A DNA stretch of 64,000 nucleotides, from positions 90,458,001 through 90,522,000 of the forward strand of contig CM126203.1 of assembly GCA_052327205.1 (NCBI GenBank). Reading direction: 5' to 3'. Of the stretch, positions 50,812 through 61,860 are shown in pieces; positions within the stretch are counted from its first letter, which is position 1, and the number at the start of each line of letters is the position of its first letter. The DNA comes from Somniosus microcephalus (lineage: Eukaryota). Made by a program: the position numbers and the translations under genes. The notes below the pieces were generated by a model. That model worked only from the letters and a program-made list of their open reading frames with translations, was not told the origin of the DNA and did not search any database.

Positions 50812-52114
50812 GATGTTTCAGTGTTGTATCATCGCATTCCTCTGAATATACAGCATTCCTCTGAATATACAGTATTGCTTTAATGTACTTTTCAGAAGGT
50901 TAAAGTGTCCCTTTATTGTAGATAAGTCAATTACTGTATTTGAAAATGCCCAAATGCATTGTTTCTTTGTATTTAGTAGTTTAGGATACACATAGGGAAA
51001 TATTATGGGGAACCATTACATAGAAACATAGAAAAATAGGAGCAGGAGTAGGCCATTCGGCTCTTCAAGCCTGCTGCCCCATTCAATATGATCATGGTTG
51101 ATCCTCTATCTCAATATCATATTCCCGCTCTCTCCCCATACCCCTTGATGCCTTTTGTGTCTAGAAATCTATCTATCTCCTCCTTAAATATATTCAATGA
51201 CTTGGCCTCCACAGCCTTCCACAGGTCCATTACCCTCTGAGTGAAGAAATTTCTCCTCATCTCAGTCCTAAATGTCCTACCCCGTACCCTGAGACTGTGA
51301 CCCCTCGTTCTAGACCCCCCAGCCAAGGGAAACATCCTCCCTGCATCCAGTCTGTCTAGCCCTGTCAGAATTTTATACGTTTCAATGAGATCCCCTCTCA
51401 TTCTTGTAAACTGCAGTGAATACAGGCCTAGACGACCCAATCTCTCCTCATATGACAGTCTTGTCATCCCAGGAATCAGGTGAACCTTCGCTGCACTCCC
51501 TCTATGGCAAGTATATCCTTTCTTAGGTAAGGAGACCAAAACGGCACACAGTACTCCAGGTGTGGTCTCACCAAGGCCCTGTACAACTGTAGTAAGACAT
51601 CCTTGCTCCTGTACTCAAATCCTCTTGCAATGAAGACCAACATGCCATTTGCCTTCCTAACTGCTTGCTGCACCTGCATGTTTGCTTTCAGTGACTGGTG
51701 TACAAGGACACCCAGGTCCCTTTGTACATCAGCATTTCCCAATCTATCACCTTTTAAATAATACTCTACCTTTCTGTTTTTCCTACCGAAGTGGATAACT
51801 TCACATTTATCCATGTTATACTGCATCTGCCATGTATTTGCCCACTCGCTCAACTTGTCTAAATCGCCTTGAAGCCTCTTTGCATCCTCCTCACAATTCA
51901 CAATCCCAGCTAGTTTCGTGTCGTCAGCAAACTTGGAAATATTACATTTGGTTCCCTCATCCAAATCATTGATATATATTGTGAATAGCTGGGGCCCAAG
52001 CACTGATCCCTGCAGTACCCCACTAGACACCACCTGCCACCCGGAAAAAGACCCATTTATTCCTACTCTGTTTCCTGTTTGTTAACCAATTTTCAATCTA
52101 TGCCATTATGCCAT

Positions 52115-52478
52115 GGGCAGCACGGTGGCATAGTGGTTAGCACTGTTGCCTCACAGCGCCAGGGACCCAGGTTCGAATCCGGCCTCGGGTGACTGTCTGT
52201 GTGGAGTTTGCACATTCTCCCCGTGTTTGCGTGGGTTTCCTCCGGGTGCTCCGGTTTCCTCCCACAGTCCAAAGATGTGCGGGTTAGGTTGATTGGCTAT
52301 GATAAAGTGACCCTTAGTGTTAGGGAGATTAAATACGTGGGGTTACGGGGATAGGGTGGGATATGTGTTGGTGTAGGGGTTACAGGGATTGGGTGGGATA
52401 TGTGTCGGTGCAGGCTCGATGGGCCGAAATGGCCTCTATCTGCACTGTGGGGTTTCTGTGATTTCTGTGATCTGTGAT
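52115..52478 (+). mobile_element. HE1-type V-SINE
   Basis: tRNA-like head (TGGCATAGTGG, GGTTCGAATCC), V-domain TGTGGAGTTTGCACATTCTCCCCGTG...CCTCCGGGTGCTCCGGTTTCCTCCCACA, CR1-derived tail GGGCCGAAATGGCCT plus TTCTGTGA repeats. Confidence 0.9.
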
Positions 52479-52859
52479 TATATTACCCCCAATCCCATGG
52501 CCTAGAAATTCAGTATCGCCATGTTTGGGGTGCTACAGCCGGGCGTTTGCTAAATTTAGCGCCCGGCGCAACTTAGCGCCACCTTCGCCGAAATTGAGTT
52601 CCATCGCCCCAAGAGGTTGCTGCTGCGCTAAAGCAGGCGATGCACGACTATCACAAGGCGCTAAGCCGGCGAGCCGAGGCGCTAACACCGAGGGCGGGCG
52701 CAGCGCAGGTGCGGCGAGTTGCTGATTGAAGGCAGACACGCTGGCGCCGGTCAGCTCTTAAAGGGGGAGGGTGGACTTGTTTGGCTGCCATGCCCTGCAC
52801 ACTGCAGCCCTGAAGCAAGACCTGACCATTGTTGGATCATCATTTCTACGCCAAGGACC

Positions 52860-54995
52860 ATGCAGAAGGCTAGGGAACGAGCGGAGCGCTTCAGCGAGGG
52901 TGCCCTGAGGCTACTGGTTGACGCAGTAGAGCGCAGGCGACCTGTCCTCTTCCCTGACAGTGGGAGGAGGCCGCTTCCCAGTGAATACCGAAAAGCCTGG
53001 AGGGAGGTGGCGAACAGGGTGACCACCAACAGCATGGTTGCCAGGACTCCACTTCAATGCAGGAAAAAGTTCAACGACCTCACTCGGGTTGTCAGGGTGA
53101 GTACCCTTTCCACTATCCTGTTCATCCCTGCATGTGCACCTCAGTTTCTGGCCAAAGGGACCTGAAAGCCCCAATGCCCAGCCCTCATCCAAGAGCTATG
53201 GGATTCTCATGAAAACCACTTGCACATTCAGCACTTTACACACTGTCAGGGCTATTCCACCATGGGAGGCAGTACAGGCAAGATGAGGGCTTGACACTGT
53301 CAGGGCTATTGCACCATGGGAGGCAGTGCAGGCAAGATCAGGGCTTGACACTGTCAGGGCTATTCCACCATGGGAGGCAGTGCAGGCAAGATCAGGGCTT
53401 GACACTGTCAGGGCTATTCCACCATGGGAGGCAGTGCAGGCAAGATCAGGACTTGACACTGTCAGGGCTATTCCACCATGGGAGGCAGTGCAGGCAAGAT
53501 GAGGGCTTGACACTGTCAGGGCTATTCCACCATGGGAGACAGTGCAGGCAAGATCAGGGCTTGACACTGTCAGGGCTATTCCACCATGGGAGGCAGTGCA
53601 GGCAAGATCAGGGCTTGACACTGTACTTAGAGGCCATCCTTTCTCTTGCAGGGCAAGCTGGCCCACAATCGCAGGCAGCAGTGACGGACCGGGGCAGGCC
53701 GTCCTGACCTGAAAGAGTTCAATGACCTGGAGCTGCGTGTGGCGCGCATTGTGGCAGGCCGGCTGATTGGCCCCATCACCAGTGGCGATGCCGACCCTGT
53801 TCTGGACAGCAATGGTAAGGTCATCACCTTTTTGACCTCTCTCTTTCCACTTGTGCCTCACACCAGCATCCTTTGCCACTATCGAACCAATGCAGTGCAT
53901 AGCAGCACTCATGCCTCCCTCGCTGCCGCCCTGTCCTCGCTCTAAAGCAACTTTTGTGCCTCCCTGCTTTCAGATGCTGATTCACCAGGTGAGGAGGCAG
54001 GCCCTCAAGATGCCACTGTCAGTGATTCTGAATTCGAGGAGGAAGAGGAAGCCGGCCCATCAGTGCCACCCTCAGCCGAGGCAGCCCATGGCCATGATGG
54101 GGACATGTCTTCCCTGGAGGGGAGCAGGGGGGAAGGGTCTGAGGAGAGTGAAGCTCCGGGGCCCAGTGGGCTGCAGCAACGCGGGAGGGGTGGGGAAGCT
54201 CGGCGGTCTTCTCCCCGGAGGGTGAGTGCAGCCTCCAGTCCTGCTACGGTGAGCGCAGAGGACGTGCGGCTCCTTGGTGAAATGGGCGCCCAGGCTGAGT
54301 GCAGGCACACTGAGCTCATGGCTGCATTGGCAAGGATGCCTGACTCCATAGAGTCACTGGCAAGAAGTGCTCAGGAATTCATGGCAGCACAGGCCAGGAG
54401 TCTGCAAGAATTCAGTGCAGCACAGGCCAGGAGTCAGCAGGACTTCGCTGCATCACAGGCGGCTTCCAGCCAAGTGCTCAGTCGTGCCGTGCATTCACTG
54501 GCTGGTCTGATGCAGACACAGATCAGGGCCACATGGGCACTAACTGCTGCCACCCTTGCTGCATTGGCCAGGCAGCGCTGGGGCCCTCGCTGCGCCGCAG
54601 CAGCCCAGCAGTCTGTGCTTCAGCAGATTGCTGCGCATGCTGCAGTGCTGGCCCGTGCGAGTGCCAGTGTATCAGCTGACCAGGGAGTGCCTGTGCTCTG
54701 TCAGGTTGGCAGCATTCCTGCAGCCAACACTGTCACTCCTCCACTGCAGCTGCCACCACCCATAGGACAGACTGCTGCCGCCCAAGCAGAGTTGAAGCAG
54801 TCAGCAGCCGGGCCATCCAGGCCCAGAGCTGGTCCAGGCCGTCCCCCAAGGGCATCTGGTGTCTCACCATCTGACCCTCAGCAGCCTTCCCCCAGCCTTG
54901 CTGCAGCCACTGGGGTCCCATTGAGGAGGAGCTGCAGGGCGGGAAGGGGCCATTCGCGGAAGCGAGGCGGATCACCCTCACAGGGGAAAAAGTAG
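52860..54995 (+). pseudogene. Harbinger Myb/SANT-like DNA-binding protein; predicted exons 52860-53096, 53652-53814, 53974-54995
   Basis: Exon 1 has RFSEGALRLLVDAVE...AWREVANRV...RTPLQCRKKFNDL; GT-AG sites (GTGAGT, TTGCAG, GTAAGG, TTTCAG) join in phase; exon 2 has KLAHNRRQQ*RTGAG with one TGA at 53682-53684; 473 codons in total. Confidence 0.85.
53238..53625 (+). repeat. 54-bp minisatellite, about 7 copies, in Myb-gene intron 1
   Basis: Unit CACTGTCAGGGCTATTCCACCATGGGAGGCAGTGCAGGCAAGATCAGGGCTTGA. Confidence 0.95.
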
Positions 54996-55359
54996 AAGGT
55001 GTGGCCAAATGTTGTGTTTATATATGAAGGCCGAGAATTTTTTTTAATATATGAAGGCCGAGACTGTTGTGTTTGTTTTTTATATGAAGGCCGAGGGTCA
55101 TGGTCATTTTTGTTTAACTATTTTTTTCATTTTCTGAAGGTTGTGAGAGCCAGTTATGTCTCTGACTGTTTTTTGGGGGGTTTATCTGAATTAGTTTGTC
55201 ATGCGGGAAGGGCACAGAGTTTGCACAGTAAAAAATTTTCTTTAATCACATTGTCCATGTTTGCACTTTGAACTATTTGTTGCCTTGACCGGCTGAGGGC
55301 TTGTGGGGTGGCTCCATTCATGTTCTTTCATTGGCACAAGCCATTCCCTGCGAGGGGGC

Positions 55360-56484
55360 CTAGAACCGAGTTGCAATAAGCCGCCGACGGACGGCCCTTG
55401 CACTTTGTGCCTCCCTCCCGTCTTGGTGCTCCTCCTCCTCCTCCTCCTCCTCTGGTGGTCCTCCAATATCTGCTGGCAGTGGCTGAGTCCTGACGATAGC
55501 CAGGTTGTGCAGCATGCAGCACACTACAATGAAATGGGAGACTCGCTCAGGCGAGTAATGTAGGGCTCCTCCGGAACGGTCCAGACAGCGGAACCGCTGC
55601 TTGAGCACACCGATTGTGTGCTCAATGATGTTCCTGGTAGCTTGATGGCTGTCATTGTATCACTCTTCAGCAGGGGTGCTGGGCGCACGGAGCGGGGTCA
55701 TCAGCCAGGTGCACAAAGGATAGCCTTTGTCCCCGAGAAGCCATCCTCGTGGGTGAGCCTGGGCTTCGAAAATGTCTGCCACAGAAGTCTGGCGCAGGAT
55801 GAAGGCAAATTGGCTGCTGCCTGGAAAGCGGGCATTGACAGCAAGTATGAGCTGCCTGTGGTCACACACCAACTGGACGTTGAGCGAATGGTAGCCCTTC
55901 CGGTTGCGGTAATCCTCGGCATTCTCTAGAGGTGCCCCCAAAGCCACATGCGTGCAGTCAATGGCGCCCTGGACCATGGGGAAGCCCGCTATTCCTCCAA
56001 ATCCCATTGCATGCTCTTGCTGCTTGTCCAGGGTCATGGAGAAGGAGATGTACTGACGTCTCCTTCTGAAAAGGGCATTGGTCACCTGGCGGATGCAGAA
56101 ATGTACCGCGAACTGGGAGATGTTGGCAATGTCCCCAGTAGCAGATTGGAAGGAGCCGGTAGCATAGAAGTTGAGAGCCACCATCACCTTCACTGCCACC
56201 GACAGAGACGTCCTGCTCCTCAGCTGTGGCTGCAGATCTCTGCAAAGCAGGTGGCAGATCTCAGTGACCATCTCCCTTCTGAATCGCAGCCTCCGAACAC
56301 ACTGCTCCTCAGACTTGTTCAGATATGAGAACTGCTGGCGGTATACCCTGGGTGGGTAAGGCCTCCTGTGCCGACGCCTGTTGGCCCTTCTCCGCCTGGC
56401 CATGACTGGCACTCTCTCATGGTGTCTCTGAGCCCTTTGAATTCAATGCAGTAAGCCAACGTTTCCATCCATTGCAGCCCCCAT
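55360..56484 (-). pseudogene. Harbinger (HARBI1-like) DDE transposase with two in-frame stops
   Basis: One frame from ATG 56484; motifs FYATGSFQ, GAIDCTH, NRKGYHSLNVQLVCD, GDKGYP, RNIIEHTIG, LKQRFRCL, CCMLHN; TGA at 56443-56445 and 55660-55662. Confidence 0.93.
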
Positions 56485-57372
56485 TATATGTGGCGACTCA
56501 AGGCTATGGCACTGAAAGTTAAATCCAAGTGCAAAGCTCTGGCCTGAAGCCAGAAGTACCTGTGCGAGTGCTGAGTCAAAGCAGAAAGCTCTCTCCCTTT
56601 GTCTCTCTCCAAATATCCGTCTCTCACACAGAAGGATTGTCACAAAATGGCTGCCACTTTTAATGCAGGAGGAGTCCCCTTTAAATAGCGCTCCCCGCGC
56701 CCCGCAGCAACTGGGAACCATTCCCCTCTACCAGTCGCTGGGGGCGCCAGGCGCACAGAAGGCCGGCACCACTGAAGTTCTGGTTCGGGGCGCACCAAGG
56801 GCGTTGCACCATGAAATGACGTCAGGATCTGCACGCGCAGCTGAGTGGGCGCTGCGGTTTAGCGCCACCGCTAAATCTTGAGTGAAGTTCGCAAGAGGCG
56901 CAGATCGCGTCACACCCGGGCGCTAGCCGCTTAGCGCCCCACTTCTCCTCCTCCTAAGGCGCTAGCGGCTGGCGCTAACAACTGAATTTCTAGGCCCATG
57001 TGTTTTAATTTTGCACACTAACCTCTTAAATGGGACTTTATCAAAGGCCTTCTGAAAATCCAAATACACCACATCCACTGGTTCTCCCTTATCTATTCTA
57101 CCAGGTACATCCTCAAAAAACTCCAGTAGGTTTGTCAAACACAATTTCCTGTTCATAAATCCATGTTGACTTTGTCTAATCCCGTTGATATTTTCTGAGT
57201 GTCCTGTTATCACATCCTTTATAATAGACTCTAGCATTTTCCCTACTACTGATGTTACCCGCACCCTCCTTTCATACATCTCACTATTCTAACAGAAACT
57301 GTTACATCAAATGTGCAATGAAATCAGAGTGACAGAAGGTAGGCTATGATTACACCTATCAATAACTGCAAT

Positions 57373-59694: not shown

Positions 59695-61860
59695 GGCCCA
59701 GAAATTCCCTACCTTAACGCACGAGTTAGCGATGCAATCCTGGCAAAAAATGGCGGCCACCACTCTAACGCCCTTCTCTGGCGCGAGACTCGGCGGCTGC
59801 CATTTTGGTGAGTGCCTTAGCGCAGCCGATCGCAGCGCTGGTCCTGGAGATGCAAATATGGAGAGTGTGACGTCACTTCACATCGCGCTCTGCGAACTTG
59901 GATCTTAGTGCTGAGTTTAGCACTGAGTCCTAAGCTCGCACTTAAAAGCGAGCATGCAACAGACTGACAGAATCGCTCTCAGCACTTCTTAAAGGGACAC
60001 ACACATCTTTCAGGTAAGTTTGCATTTAATTAGACTGGATTTTTTATATTTTATTGAAGTAGTGGTGTGTTGCAATACATGTTAAACATTTTTTAAGAGT
60101 GCAGGGATTGCTGCTGGATACTTGCAAGGCCTCGGATAGGAAAGGAAGGCCTCTGAGAAATCAGAAACTGCTGGAAATACTCAGCAGGTGAGGCAGCATC
60201 TGTGGAGAAAATGTCCATGTCTCGGGTCAAGATGCTGCCTGACCTGCTGAATATTTTCACCGTTTTATGCTGTCATTTCAGATTTACAGCATCGGCTCAC
60301 AGAGGGAAGAGGAAGTCGCAGAAGAGGACTATGTCGAAGAGGAGGACACAGAAGGAAGGAAGGATGCAACCCAGACAGCCGCTTTCTGGTCAGATTATCC
60401 GGGATGGAATAATCCGCCTCCATTACCAGTGACCACAAACCCAATTCCCCATCAACATTGTCCCACACCTTACCTTTCCTCTGTTACTGACCATCACAGC
60501 GTCCTCTTGGCTACAATGCTGAAATAAAAGCCACCACAAAGCAAACTTTCCAATCCAACTTTATACATCTATCCATCCAATATGACATGAAGAAATCAAC
60601 TCATCACCCTTATGCATTCTCTTAATGACTGTCTTGTGTGTGCCTTTGCCTGTCCTGCTGATGTCACACAGTGCTACCCCAGTGGCTACAGCATGGCTGG
60701 TGGAAGGCTGCTGACTTTCAGTGGGGGACACTGCAAATGGCCTTGCAGGTCGACCTTGAGGAGCTGGTTGCTGGGATGTCAAATCAAGTGACGGTGTTTC
60801 TTATTCTTCTTCTTCTTGGTCAACCACTGGCTGGGCAGGCTGCATTTCTTGGGTGTGTGAATTGAGGAAGGCACAAAGGTGGAGGTGTGGTGAGGGGAAG
60901 GCAGGACAGAAAGAGGTGCATGCCAGAAGGAGGATACCAGCATCTTGTATCCTTTCAGCCCTGCCGCTGGCCAAGGGCTCAGCCATGCCCCTGCCAAGAA
61001 TGGCCAGCACCGTCTCCTCCAAGGAGGTGAGGTGAGGCTAGGAATGGGAGGTGTGCCTCGTGTTTGGTAGAGATTGTTGGTTGGTGAGCGATGGGGGGGA
61101 GGGTGGGGGGTGTCGTGCATTGAGCAGTGTGTGAGGCTAGTGATGCAGTTGGTAATTGACGGCATTTGAAGATGCATTCACTGACCTTGACCACTGGTCT
61201 GAGGTCATGAAGCTTCTTTGGGCACTGGAGCCAGGTGGTCGGGGGGGGTGGGGGGGGAAGTGACACTGCTGGCAGTGATGGCCTCGGTGATGTGGTCCCA
61301 CATCCTTCTTTCTGCAGGGCCTCCTGGGCCTTGTGGGTAGAGGACTTCTCTTGCAGTGTTGACCCTCTGCACAAAGCTGGAGTGTAAGGCCCTGGGTGTC
61401 CCTTCCCTGGCTTGCTGAGCATTTTTTCCATTTTTTAAGGTGCGGAAGGTAAATCAGCTTTAAGAGCTGAAGACTCCCATTTGGGAATTCATTTTAATGT
61501 AATTTTTTTTTCAGAAGGCAGTTGTGCTGTAAGTGCCAAAAACTGCCTATTTTTAAATGATTTTTTTTCATCTTAGAAGGCAATTTACCTTTAAGGGACC
61601 AAAGTGCTCTCTAAAATGACAGCCTTGCTTTAAGAGAAGGCTGTACTTGCTGCAATGGCGCTATGGCCACGCTTCATTGGGCCTCCTGCCAGGACCAATG
61701 CCACCAAAACGGCCTTGCACTGTAAGTTTAGTGCTGGGCTAATGTTAATTAGCAACCAGCACCAATTTACCGGTCCTGCCAGCACCATCAATTTCAGCGG
61801 CTGTTAACTCAGGCCCACGGTGGCACCGGCAGGTTTTTAGCGATTTCCAATTTCTAGGCC
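59695..61860. mobile_element. Decayed, internally deleted Harbinger element
   Basis: Ends GGCCCAGAAATT / AATTTCTAGGCC; minus-strand relic LQCPKKLHDLRPVVKVS matches LQCRKKFNDLTRVVRVS of the intact Myb exon 1; plus-strand acidic relic near 60300-60400 resembles the transposase tail. Confidence 0.8.

Follow-up and report, generated by a model that had tools for sequence, protein, structure and literature searches.

The window analyzed here is a 64,000-nucleotide stretch of the Somniosus microcephalus genome, and between positions 52499 and 56996 it contains a Harbinger copy of 4,498 bp with two convergent genes, one for a DDE transposase and one, with three exons, for a Myb-like protein. The element is bounded by 16 bp TIRs (52499..52514 on the forward strand and 56981..56996 on the reverse strand) that are 100% complementary, and is flanked on each side by a copy of CAT (52496..52498 and 56997..56999). 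The uninterrupted insertion site, in which CAT is present just once, is present at exactly 49 places genome-wide, against 0 for the control, and because of these empty sites the duplication of CAT is proven; the perfect TIRs and CAT TSD described in an earlier note on this DNA are thus confirmed. The host sequence is a LINE on the reverse strand, whose reverse transcriptase frame is split into a downstream part at 51476..52498 (RVT_1 profile positions 111-200; E=1e-11) and an upstream part at 57000..57288 (profile positions 12-96; E=1.2e-06, slightly below the curated cut-off). The downstream part is also interrupted at about 52118-52479 by an insert that, by eye, we take to be SINE-like. A search of Rfam gave no match.

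Inside the TIRs lie two subterminal arrays of GGCGCTA(A) motifs, at 52529..52685 and 56685..56978, which are putative binding sites for the Myb protein; GGCGCTAA is the repeated subterminal motif of the family. The subfamily majority sequence has five exact 7-mers on the left, five on the right and none internally, a best-7-mer count of 10 that is attained in 4/500 shuffles, and the window copy retains four on the left and five on the right. A T-rich spacer (54996..55359), with 27-33 bp repeats at 55012-55098, separates the two convergent stop codons. The 16 bp TIRs are below the usual length of 25-50 bp (PMC9179366) but within the range of 5-1042 bp given in a passage of PMC4482050.

The Myb gene is transcribed rightwards. 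Exon 1 (52860..53096) encodes a Myb/SANT-like trihelix domain (PF13873, E=8.4e-09; 35.7 bits against a cut-off of 21.7), and is followed by a predicted GT..AG intron (53097..53651) that homologues cross gap-free at the exon 1/2 joint, and in which seven 54 bp tandem units lie at about 53230-53624; the number of units varies from 1 to 10 among 29 copies. Exon 2 (53652..53814) contains the only premature stop of the gene, a TGA at 53682-53684 where 21/28 sister copies have CGA. The second predicted intron (53815..53973; GT..AG, phase 1) has its GT and its AG in 28/28 other copies each, and exon 3 (53974..54995) is open, encoding an acidic stretch, an Ala/Gln-rich region and a basic tail, with 33-nt coding repeats near 54354-54460. 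There are no frameshifts, and relative to the majority of the 28 other full-length copies the protein carries 26 missense changes and one codon deletion. Eight non-CpG changes are bunched within 100 bp of exon 2 (p=0.01 uncorrected), a cluster that is not significant once corrected for 29 copies. Gene conversion as its source was considered and rejected: there is no donor in 111 copies, and the best genome match is 95%.

The transposase gene (55360..56484) is a single leftwards-transcribed exon of 374 codons with a strong match to PF13359 (DDE_Tnp_4; E=3.9e-35, 121 bits) and a lesser one to PF04827 (36 bits); a search of solved structures returned only four chance matches with E of about 0.5. 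The frame is interrupted by TGA at 56443-56445 and at 55660-55662 and has no frameshift. The earlier note was right that this is a two-component PIF/Harbinger element with two frameshift-free genes. The residues D176, D252 and E288, present in 99, 98 and 81 of 120 homologues, are all retained. The window copy differs from the majority of the 28 other full-length copies by 16 missense changes, which brings its protein changes beyond the stops to 43 over the two genes, and alters the homologue-conserved residues T101, P149, R183, H225, D226 and Q309.

Two of these alterations are the QF of GSSQFAFIL, where HD had been noted as usual, and comparison with 71 other copies bears this expectation out: 66 have HD, four HN, one HG and none QF. 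The replacement, at 55808-55810, is a private three-base change, so that neither a subfamily trait nor one-base CpG decay accounts for it. The three stops, all TGA and all present as reported, were attributed in the earlier note to CGA-to-TGA decay. Other full-length copies, sought there for a consensus, do exist, and the consensus has sense codons at all three positions, although CGA (Arg) is found only at 53682 and 55660. The codon at 56443 is TGC (Cys) in 70/71 copies, and the stop in the window results from a TGC-to-TGA transversion. CpG decay is otherwise dominant: 47/51 of the window changes at CpG sites are C>T or G>A, the rate being 12.0% compared with 1.5% elsewhere, and the two CpG stops recur as TGA in 6/71 and 2/82 other copies.

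The family to which the element belongs is large: its left end is matched exactly at no fewer than 1,476 places in the genome and its right end at 1,395 (23-nt queries; control 0). It comprises several subfamilies together with a 1.38 kb non-autonomous deletion form. All 117 transposase matches scored, the window included, are at least 90% identical. The window copy is 2.6% diverged from its subfamily majority, ranks 24/29 in closeness to it, and has a total divergence above the family median, the median divergence from the majority being 2.1%. A tree of 59 copies is star-like with end branches of 1.2-4.8%, the closest pair among 29 copies is 3.0% apart, and among the copies compared (about 120 read) there are no near-identical pairs at unrelated sites. 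Of 20 copies chosen because their left ends were the best, two are rearranged, and the remaining 18 diverge by 1.7-2.6% from the majority outside that end. A hidden young subgroup was also sought using one near-majority left end as the query and was rejected, the best other copy matching at 98% and the elements diverging again by about 2% over the rest of their length. The copies read are about 120 of several thousand, many of them chosen by likeness, and a rare recent subgroup may therefore exist. The description of the family as fairly young holds only as a percentage (the median of 2.1%), and the copies compared give no indication that the family is moving at present.

Among 77 full-length copies the transposase frame is open in 29 and the Myb frame in 10, and in two (L198 and L192) both are open, so that better natural copies than that in the window exist. 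An autonomous, potentially active element would have both frames intact, whereas the window copy has three stops and QF in place of HD; it is more worn than most of the full-length relatives examined, and is therefore an ordinary copy. Its earlier description as near-intact and repairable is overstated, since this does not set it apart from other copies, given its rank, its altered conserved residues and the open frames of L198 and L192.

The pattern of changes differs between those private to a copy and those that are shared. For private non-CpG changes dN/dS is 1.00 in the transposase (72 copies), 1.09 in Myb exons 1-2 (78 copies) and 1.08 in exon 3 (68 copies), and for changes common to at least four copies it is 0.19, 0.24 and 0.67, respectively. 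The difference is significant for the transposase (Fisher p=9e-08) and Myb exons 1-2 (p=8e-06), whereas for Myb exon 3 the evidence of selection does not reach significance (p=0.22, 68 copies). Since private changes are neutral and shared ones selected (0.19-0.24), this comparison of sequences indicates that the source elements were functional and that the genomic copies are now decaying neutrally.

Perfect 3 bp TSDs flank 75/89 two-ended elements, and 4 bp TSDs flank none. The target is a 15 bp palindrome, A-R-A-S-A-Y/NWN/R-T-S-T-Y-T, of which the central three bases are duplicated, and positions -7 to +7 about its center carry more information than the background. A four bases to the left and T four bases to the right of the TSD are jointly present at 58/74 sites; the center is NWN at 70/74, WWW at 49/74 and CWG at only 2/74. 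In PMC2836001, as excerpted, a palindromic preference of 15 bp is given for vertebrates. The element thus combines TIRs and a 3 bp TSD, a DDE transposase of the Harbinger/IS5-like class, a second gene that is Myb/SANT-like and an extended palindromic target, as do PIF/Harbinger elements in the broad sense. A passage of Han et al. 2015 (PMC4482050) divides the PHIS groups by TSD into PIF/Harbinger (TWA), Pangu (ANT), NuwaI (CWG) and NuwaII (C|TNA|G), and the 74 sites include 10, 13, 2 and 3 of these classes, respectively. Assignment to narrow-sense PIF/Harbinger, NuwaI or NuwaII is accordingly rejected, and no single PHIS TSD rule in that passage fits the shark family, although the two-gene layout and 3 bp TSD agree with both PIF/Harbinger and Nuwa as described there.

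Another close parallel is seen with Harbinger3_DR of zebrafish, reportedly the subject of Sinzelle et al. 2008. Both have two genes, of which one encodes a DDE transposase and the other a protein that is Myb-like, and a repeated subterminal motif, and in both the genomic copies are defective and the majority sequence is open. The transposase motifs GAIDCTH, GSxHDxFI, WLLGDxGYPL and RCLDxSGG are common to the two by eye (PMC9179366 supplement), as is a 3 bp TSD within a 15 bp palindrome; the shark flanks match the half sites AAACAC...GTCTTT, taken from an excerpt of PMC3016246, at 3.73/6 positions compared with 1.78 at control offsets. They differ in that the shark target center is a relaxed NWN rather than CWG, and we list as further differences the 474-residue shark Myb protein, the 33-nt coding repeat and the 54 bp intron repeat. 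The best homologues come from sharks and rays, where they bear the name 'putative nuclease HARBI1' (in Pristiophorus, Heptranchias, Narcine, Mobula, Carcharodon and others), the top one being 72% identical to the majority transposase over 305 residues. The family nests with these in a clade of 24 rows (support 98/97) in a 33-row tree, and the long MG-starting amino end of the HARBI1-named proteins is also predicted for the majority transposase. No homologue approaches 90%, so that none of the 2,557 scored candidates represents the family.

Two public raw RNA runs, chosen by species label and perhaps from another species than that of the window, contain abundant family RNA (10,004/16.7 million and 15,309/14.4 million reads). 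Assuming the usual type of strandedness for the library, the reads lean towards the sense strand of the transposase, read depth in Myb intron 1 equals that of the exons, and among the 12 joints listed for the two runs there is no spliced Myb joint. In run X8, possibly from another species, reads have the family base and not the window base at 56161 (7/7) and 56315 (6/6). Logan contigs of three runs contain the family and are too short to tell whether this particular insertion is shared.

We consider, with a probability of about 0.9, that the element belongs to a large PIF/Harbinger family with two genes and is a broken copy of full length, inserted in a LINE, likely dead and decaying neutrally. 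That a few intact masters instead keep the family moving slowly, the window copy being a recently disabled member, seems improbable. L198 would be a candidate for such a master, since it has a TSD and perfect TIRs, its two frames are open, and it keeps the GT/AG sites and D176, H225, D226, D252 and E288, and given the numbers of open frames two loci could supply proteins to a family whose RNA exists; yet L198 diverges by 1.9% from the majority, and conserved residues are altered in it, W260 (108/120 homologues), G110, V180, L182 and R297. Further against mobility are the lack of near-identical pairs at unrelated sites, private dN/dS of about 1, and RNA in which none of the 12 listed joints is a Myb splice and intron 1 is as deep as the exons.

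There is very little reason to think that the window copy is under domestication or retained for one gene, as with HARBI1, NAIF1 and MSANTD1-4. These belong to the same two protein classes as the products of the shark element, but excerpts of PMC9392472 and PMC9710019 describe each of them as a single host gene that is conserved and subject to purifying selection, whereas the window copy is TIR-bounded, with stops and neutral private changes. The absence of frameshifts from both genes, the cluster in Myb exon 2 and the derivation of conserved shark and ray genes from the same clade would fit retention; early stops in both genes (codon 14 and codon 90), intact TIRs and TSD, divergence above the family median and the X8 reads with family bases (from a run that may be of another species) argue against it. 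Several of the HARBI1-named proteins form short-branched cross-species groups resembling host genes, unlike the multi-copy shark element with its TIRs. Least credible of all is that assembly errors in an intact element produced the stops and QF: three adjacent substitutions are indeed rare and private, but the differences are spread element-wide with the CpG pattern, all other copies bear a similar load, and the same two CpG stops are found in other copies.

For the broken copy favored here, we propose that the source Myb protein, as is suggested by Harbinger3_DR, likely bound the arrays next to the two TIRs, thereby recruiting the DDE transposase to the element ends, and that the transposase inserted into the 15 bp palindrome, duplicating its central three bases, as the target sites show. 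Several subfamilies and the 1.38 kb non-autonomous form spread at about the same time, as the copies compared show, after which movement likely stopped. Since its insertion the window copy has gained, as its private differences show, two CpG stops, the Cys-to-stop transversion, the replacement of HD by QF and some forty further changes to the proteins. Its ends are likely still mobilizable by proteins from another copy, the window copy itself supplying none, and, with the family as a whole to draw on, the reconstruction of a working element is likely feasible.

The window copy alone matters little, and the family, which is large and well preserved, with an open majority, a target rule that can be measured and a partner that is non-autonomous, is good assay material. 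A rebuilt Harbinger3_DR is shown to be active in excerpts of PMC3016246, PMC2836001 and PMC9710019, so that the gain would be comparative rather than a new mechanism. We tentatively suggest, while thinking it somewhat less probable than the contrary, that the subfamily majority represents a working elasmobranch Harbinger that kept the six-base palindromic flanks of the Harbinger3_DR type with a relaxed central triplet, and that TSD groups such as TWA, CWG and TNA are not lineage markers. If this is true, partner swaps with Harbinger3_DR would show which protein picks the target, and vertebrates would have yielded a second Harbinger tool, one less restricted in its targets. Harbinger-like elements were called absent from sharks or from the elephant shark in two surveys (PMC9179366 and, as excerpted, PMC4482050, where sharks are said to lack PHIS elements altogether), one of which urged testing other cartilaginous fishes. 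Two-gene PIF/Harbinger elements are a known kind, and their occurrence in sharks has been mentioned in print before, the superfamily being given one line each in two shark genome papers (PMC8455134, PMC12498223).

The Harbinger element, delimited by its terminal inverted repeats and the flanking target site duplication, occupies positions 52499-56996. Its 16 bp ends are perfectly complementary and CAT flanks it on either side; an unoccupied target with a single CAT is present exactly 49 times genome-wide (control, 0), so the duplication is three bases and the earlier note's account of the termini holds. The element is inserted in a minus-strand LINE and interrupts its reverse transcriptase frame, such that a profile search places profile positions 12-96 to its right and 111-200 to its left. 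The same LINE carries an insert at 52118-52479, 20 bases left of the transposon, which by eye looks SINE-like. The DDE transposase gene (minus strand, 56484 to 55360) has 374 codons and matches PF13359 (E=3.9e-35). On the opposite, plus strand, the Myb gene is predicted to consist of three exons, at 52860-53096, 53652-53814 and 53974-54995, separated by GT/AG introns; exon 1 matches PF13873 (E=8.4e-09), and the joint of exons 1 and 2 is spanned without gaps by eleven shark and ray homologues. A 90 bp stretch at 60676-60765 is 77% like a portion of Myb exon 3 on the opposite strand, and may be a low-complexity likeness. The gene layout matches that of PIF/Harbinger elements in three reports (PMC9179366, PMC9710019, PMC2836001), and the window copy is a new instance within this already known class.

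The three TGA stops, the QF pair and the absence of frameshifts in both genes are all confirmed on re-reading, and the stops have two kinds of origin. All three had been ascribed to CGA-to-TGA decay, which fits two of them: the codon at 53682 (Myb) is CGA in 21 of 28 sister copies (36 CGA, 24 CAA, 17 CTA, 2 TGA and 3 other among 82 copies of all subfamilies), and that at 55660-55662 (transposase) is CGA in 58 of 71 copies, CAA in 7 and TGA in 6. At 56443-56445, also in the transposase, CpG decay is ruled out, as the codon is cysteine TGC in 70 of 71 copies (TAC in one) and changed by transversion. The QF pair is found in none of 71 copies, 66 of which encode HD as had been anticipated, and reflects a change of three adjacent bases, 55808-55810. 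The H and D are conserved in 98 and 84 of 120 homologues, respectively; the D presumably binds metal, in line with HARBI1 annotation.

Relative to the majority sequence of the 28 other full-length copies, the window copy differs at 2.61% of sites, with 12.0% divergence at CpG sites (47 of 51 changes are C>T or G>A) and 1.52% elsewhere; the corresponding medians across copies stand at 2.15%, 9.0% and 1.36%, and this copy ranks 24th of 29. Apart from its stops, the transposase carries 16 missense changes, several of which fall on residues conserved among 120 homologues (T101 in 99, P149 in 75, R183 in 83 and Q309 in 95), and the Myb protein has 26 together with one lost codon. Mending four sites would not recover the source element, and the description of this copy as near-intact and repairable is overstated. 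Positions 53687-53786 in Myb exon 2 contain eight non-CpG changes within 100 bp, mostly private to the window copy among 111 copies, and a search for a donor of this cluster found none.

Better copies are present elsewhere. The rebuilding envisaged in the earlier note depends on other full-length copies, and 77 two-ended elements of at least 3 kb were surveyed, a sample biased toward well-kept copies; the transposase frame is open in 29, the Myb frame with its splice sites in 10, and both in 2. One copy, L198 on contig C30, has perfect terminal repeats, a TTT duplication, both frames open, all splice sites and the acidic residues, and is also altered at conserved W260, G110, V180, L182 and R297. 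Another, L192, carries a 2.2 kb insertion at the Myb start.

Substitutions private to one copy were compared with those common to four or more, using non-CpG changes only and excluding alleles in two or three copies. Private changes have dN/dS values of 1.00 (transposase), 1.09 (Myb exons 1-2) and 1.08 (exon 3), whereas the shared changes give 0.19, 0.24 and 0.67; the contrast is strong for the transposase (p=9e-08) and Myb exons 1-2 (p=8e-06) and not significant for exon 3 (p=0.22). Both proteins were therefore under selection while the lineages moved, and copies have decayed neutrally since insertion. A tree of 59 copies has terminal branches of 1.2-4.8%, and the closest pair among 29 copies is 3.0% apart. 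When copies were selected for the best left ends, 18 of 20 were back at 1.7-2.6% over the remaining sequence and the other two are rearranged. The near-identical pair L187 and L188 is likely a segmental duplication, since the two share the same flank and lie 86 kb apart. Movement of the family appears to have ended. The family is fairly young in percent divergence, as previously proposed, but only in percent: with a mutation rate borrowed from another species, the epaulette shark (7e-10 per base and generation; 95% interval 1.4-14.1e-10; PMC10587355), the 1.36% non-CpG median would correspond roughly to some 2e7 generations, and at least 1e7.

Insertion follows a target rule. A perfect 3 bp duplication is present in 75 of 89 two-ended elements, none of these 75 having a 4 bp duplication, and 74 distinct sites yield the palindrome A-R-A-S-A-Y / NWN / R-T-S-T-Y-T, in which 89% of half sites carry A at the fourth base beyond the duplication. 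Left and right halves do not clearly differ (lowest p=0.04 among six positions), and the window copy's own right half is perfect, GTGTTT. The zebrafish element Harbinger3_DR integrates into AAACACCWGGTCTTT (PMC3016246); the half sites of the present family match this target at 3.73 of 6 positions (1.78 at control offsets), but only 2 of 74 have the CWG centre. Host repeats are insertion hot spots, since they spell the preferred palindrome, both in a flank sequence (cattaagacac AAA) common to the independent insertions L142, L153 and L174, of which L142 and L153 belong to different subfamilies, and in a GACTCTAT-type microsatellite that holds several insertions (the hot-spot set also includes L135, L158, L166 and L173). 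In L065 and L151 the end triplets, TTT and AAA, are reverse complements rather than duplicates, the pattern expected after an inversion between two copies. The majority sequence carries five GGCGCTA motifs close to either end and none internally, and a best 7-mer reached as high a count in 4 of 500 shuffles. The Myb protein of Harbinger3_DR binds a subterminal 9-mer (PMC9710019), and by analogy these repeats are likely Myb-protein binding sites, from which the protein may recruit the transposase.

Searching the 6.45 Gb genome with the terminal 23 bases gave 1,476 exact hits for the left end and 1,395 for the right, counts that include sister subfamilies. When the two end lists for contig C1 are compared, 29 of its first 100 left ends are paired with an exact right end no more than 15 kb away, and the true number of elements is thus likely several thousand. 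The copies read comprise 39 ranked by transposase likeness, 60 from the C1 list (24 of them picked for both ends being exact), and one extension together with 20 chosen for the likeness of their left ends. Those on C1 belong either to the subfamily of the window copy, at about 94-98% to its majority, or to sister subfamilies, at about 80-93%. Ten two-ended C1 elements of 1,373-1,387 bp (L133, L136, L139, L140, L143, L145, L155, L156, L175 and L177) share an internal deletion, and this 1.38 kb form is non-autonomous and spread by itself. Its junction falls in two similar stretches of about 20 bases, one at the Myb start (about 52849) and one midway through the transposase gene (about 55965). 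A 54 bp repeat in Myb intron 1 (53230-53624) varies from 1 to 14 units among copies, and a 33-nt in-frame repeat in exon 3 (54354-54460) mostly gives 1 to 6 probe matches, with 29 in L135. A 760 bp short element, L181, adjoins a much more divergent relative (about 68%) whose terminal repeat is similar, and, going by this neighbour, more distant Harbinger families have these ends too.

The proteins nearest in sequence, none above 72% identity, come from sharks and rays and are annotated as putative nuclease HARBI1. A 33-row tree, 32 rows of which were picked from 120 listed hits for species coverage, places the family among sawshark rows within a shark-and-ray clade, and nothing pointed to horizontal transfer from beyond sharks and rays. 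The host is probably itself a shark or ray. Several HARBI1-named shark and ray proteins form short-branched groups across distant species (P0013/P0016, P0033/P0037, P0014/P0020/P0057 and the P0004-P0019 group), and one Myb gene (P0121-P0131) is nearly unchanged across sharks and rays; judging from these sequences, they are likely separate domestications from this transposon clade. Han et al. report PHIS elements as absent in sharks (PMC4482050), a survey by Etchegaray et al. was negative for elephant shark and called for more species (PMC9179366), and the whale shark and grey reef shark papers both list the superfamily (PMC8455134, PMC12498223). Among titles and the openings of abstracts, no detailed description of a shark Harbinger family was found; such families may be named in the supplementary repeat tables of those two papers, in subscription papers, or in Dfam or Repbase.

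Two raw RNA runs were selected on their species label, which is shared with a DNA holder of the family; that species may differ from the window's. In one run 10,004 of 16.7 million reads fall on copy L065, and in the other 15,309 of 14.4 million, on both strands and mostly at 90-95% likeness. The 12 joints listed include no predicted Myb intron, and read depth over intron 1 is like that over the exons, a pattern more in keeping with read-through transcription of many embedded copies than with element mRNA. The deletion junction of the 1.38 kb form is represented by 24 and 12 reads. At 99% likeness, the public sequencing run X8 has the family base, not the window base, at 56161 and 56315.
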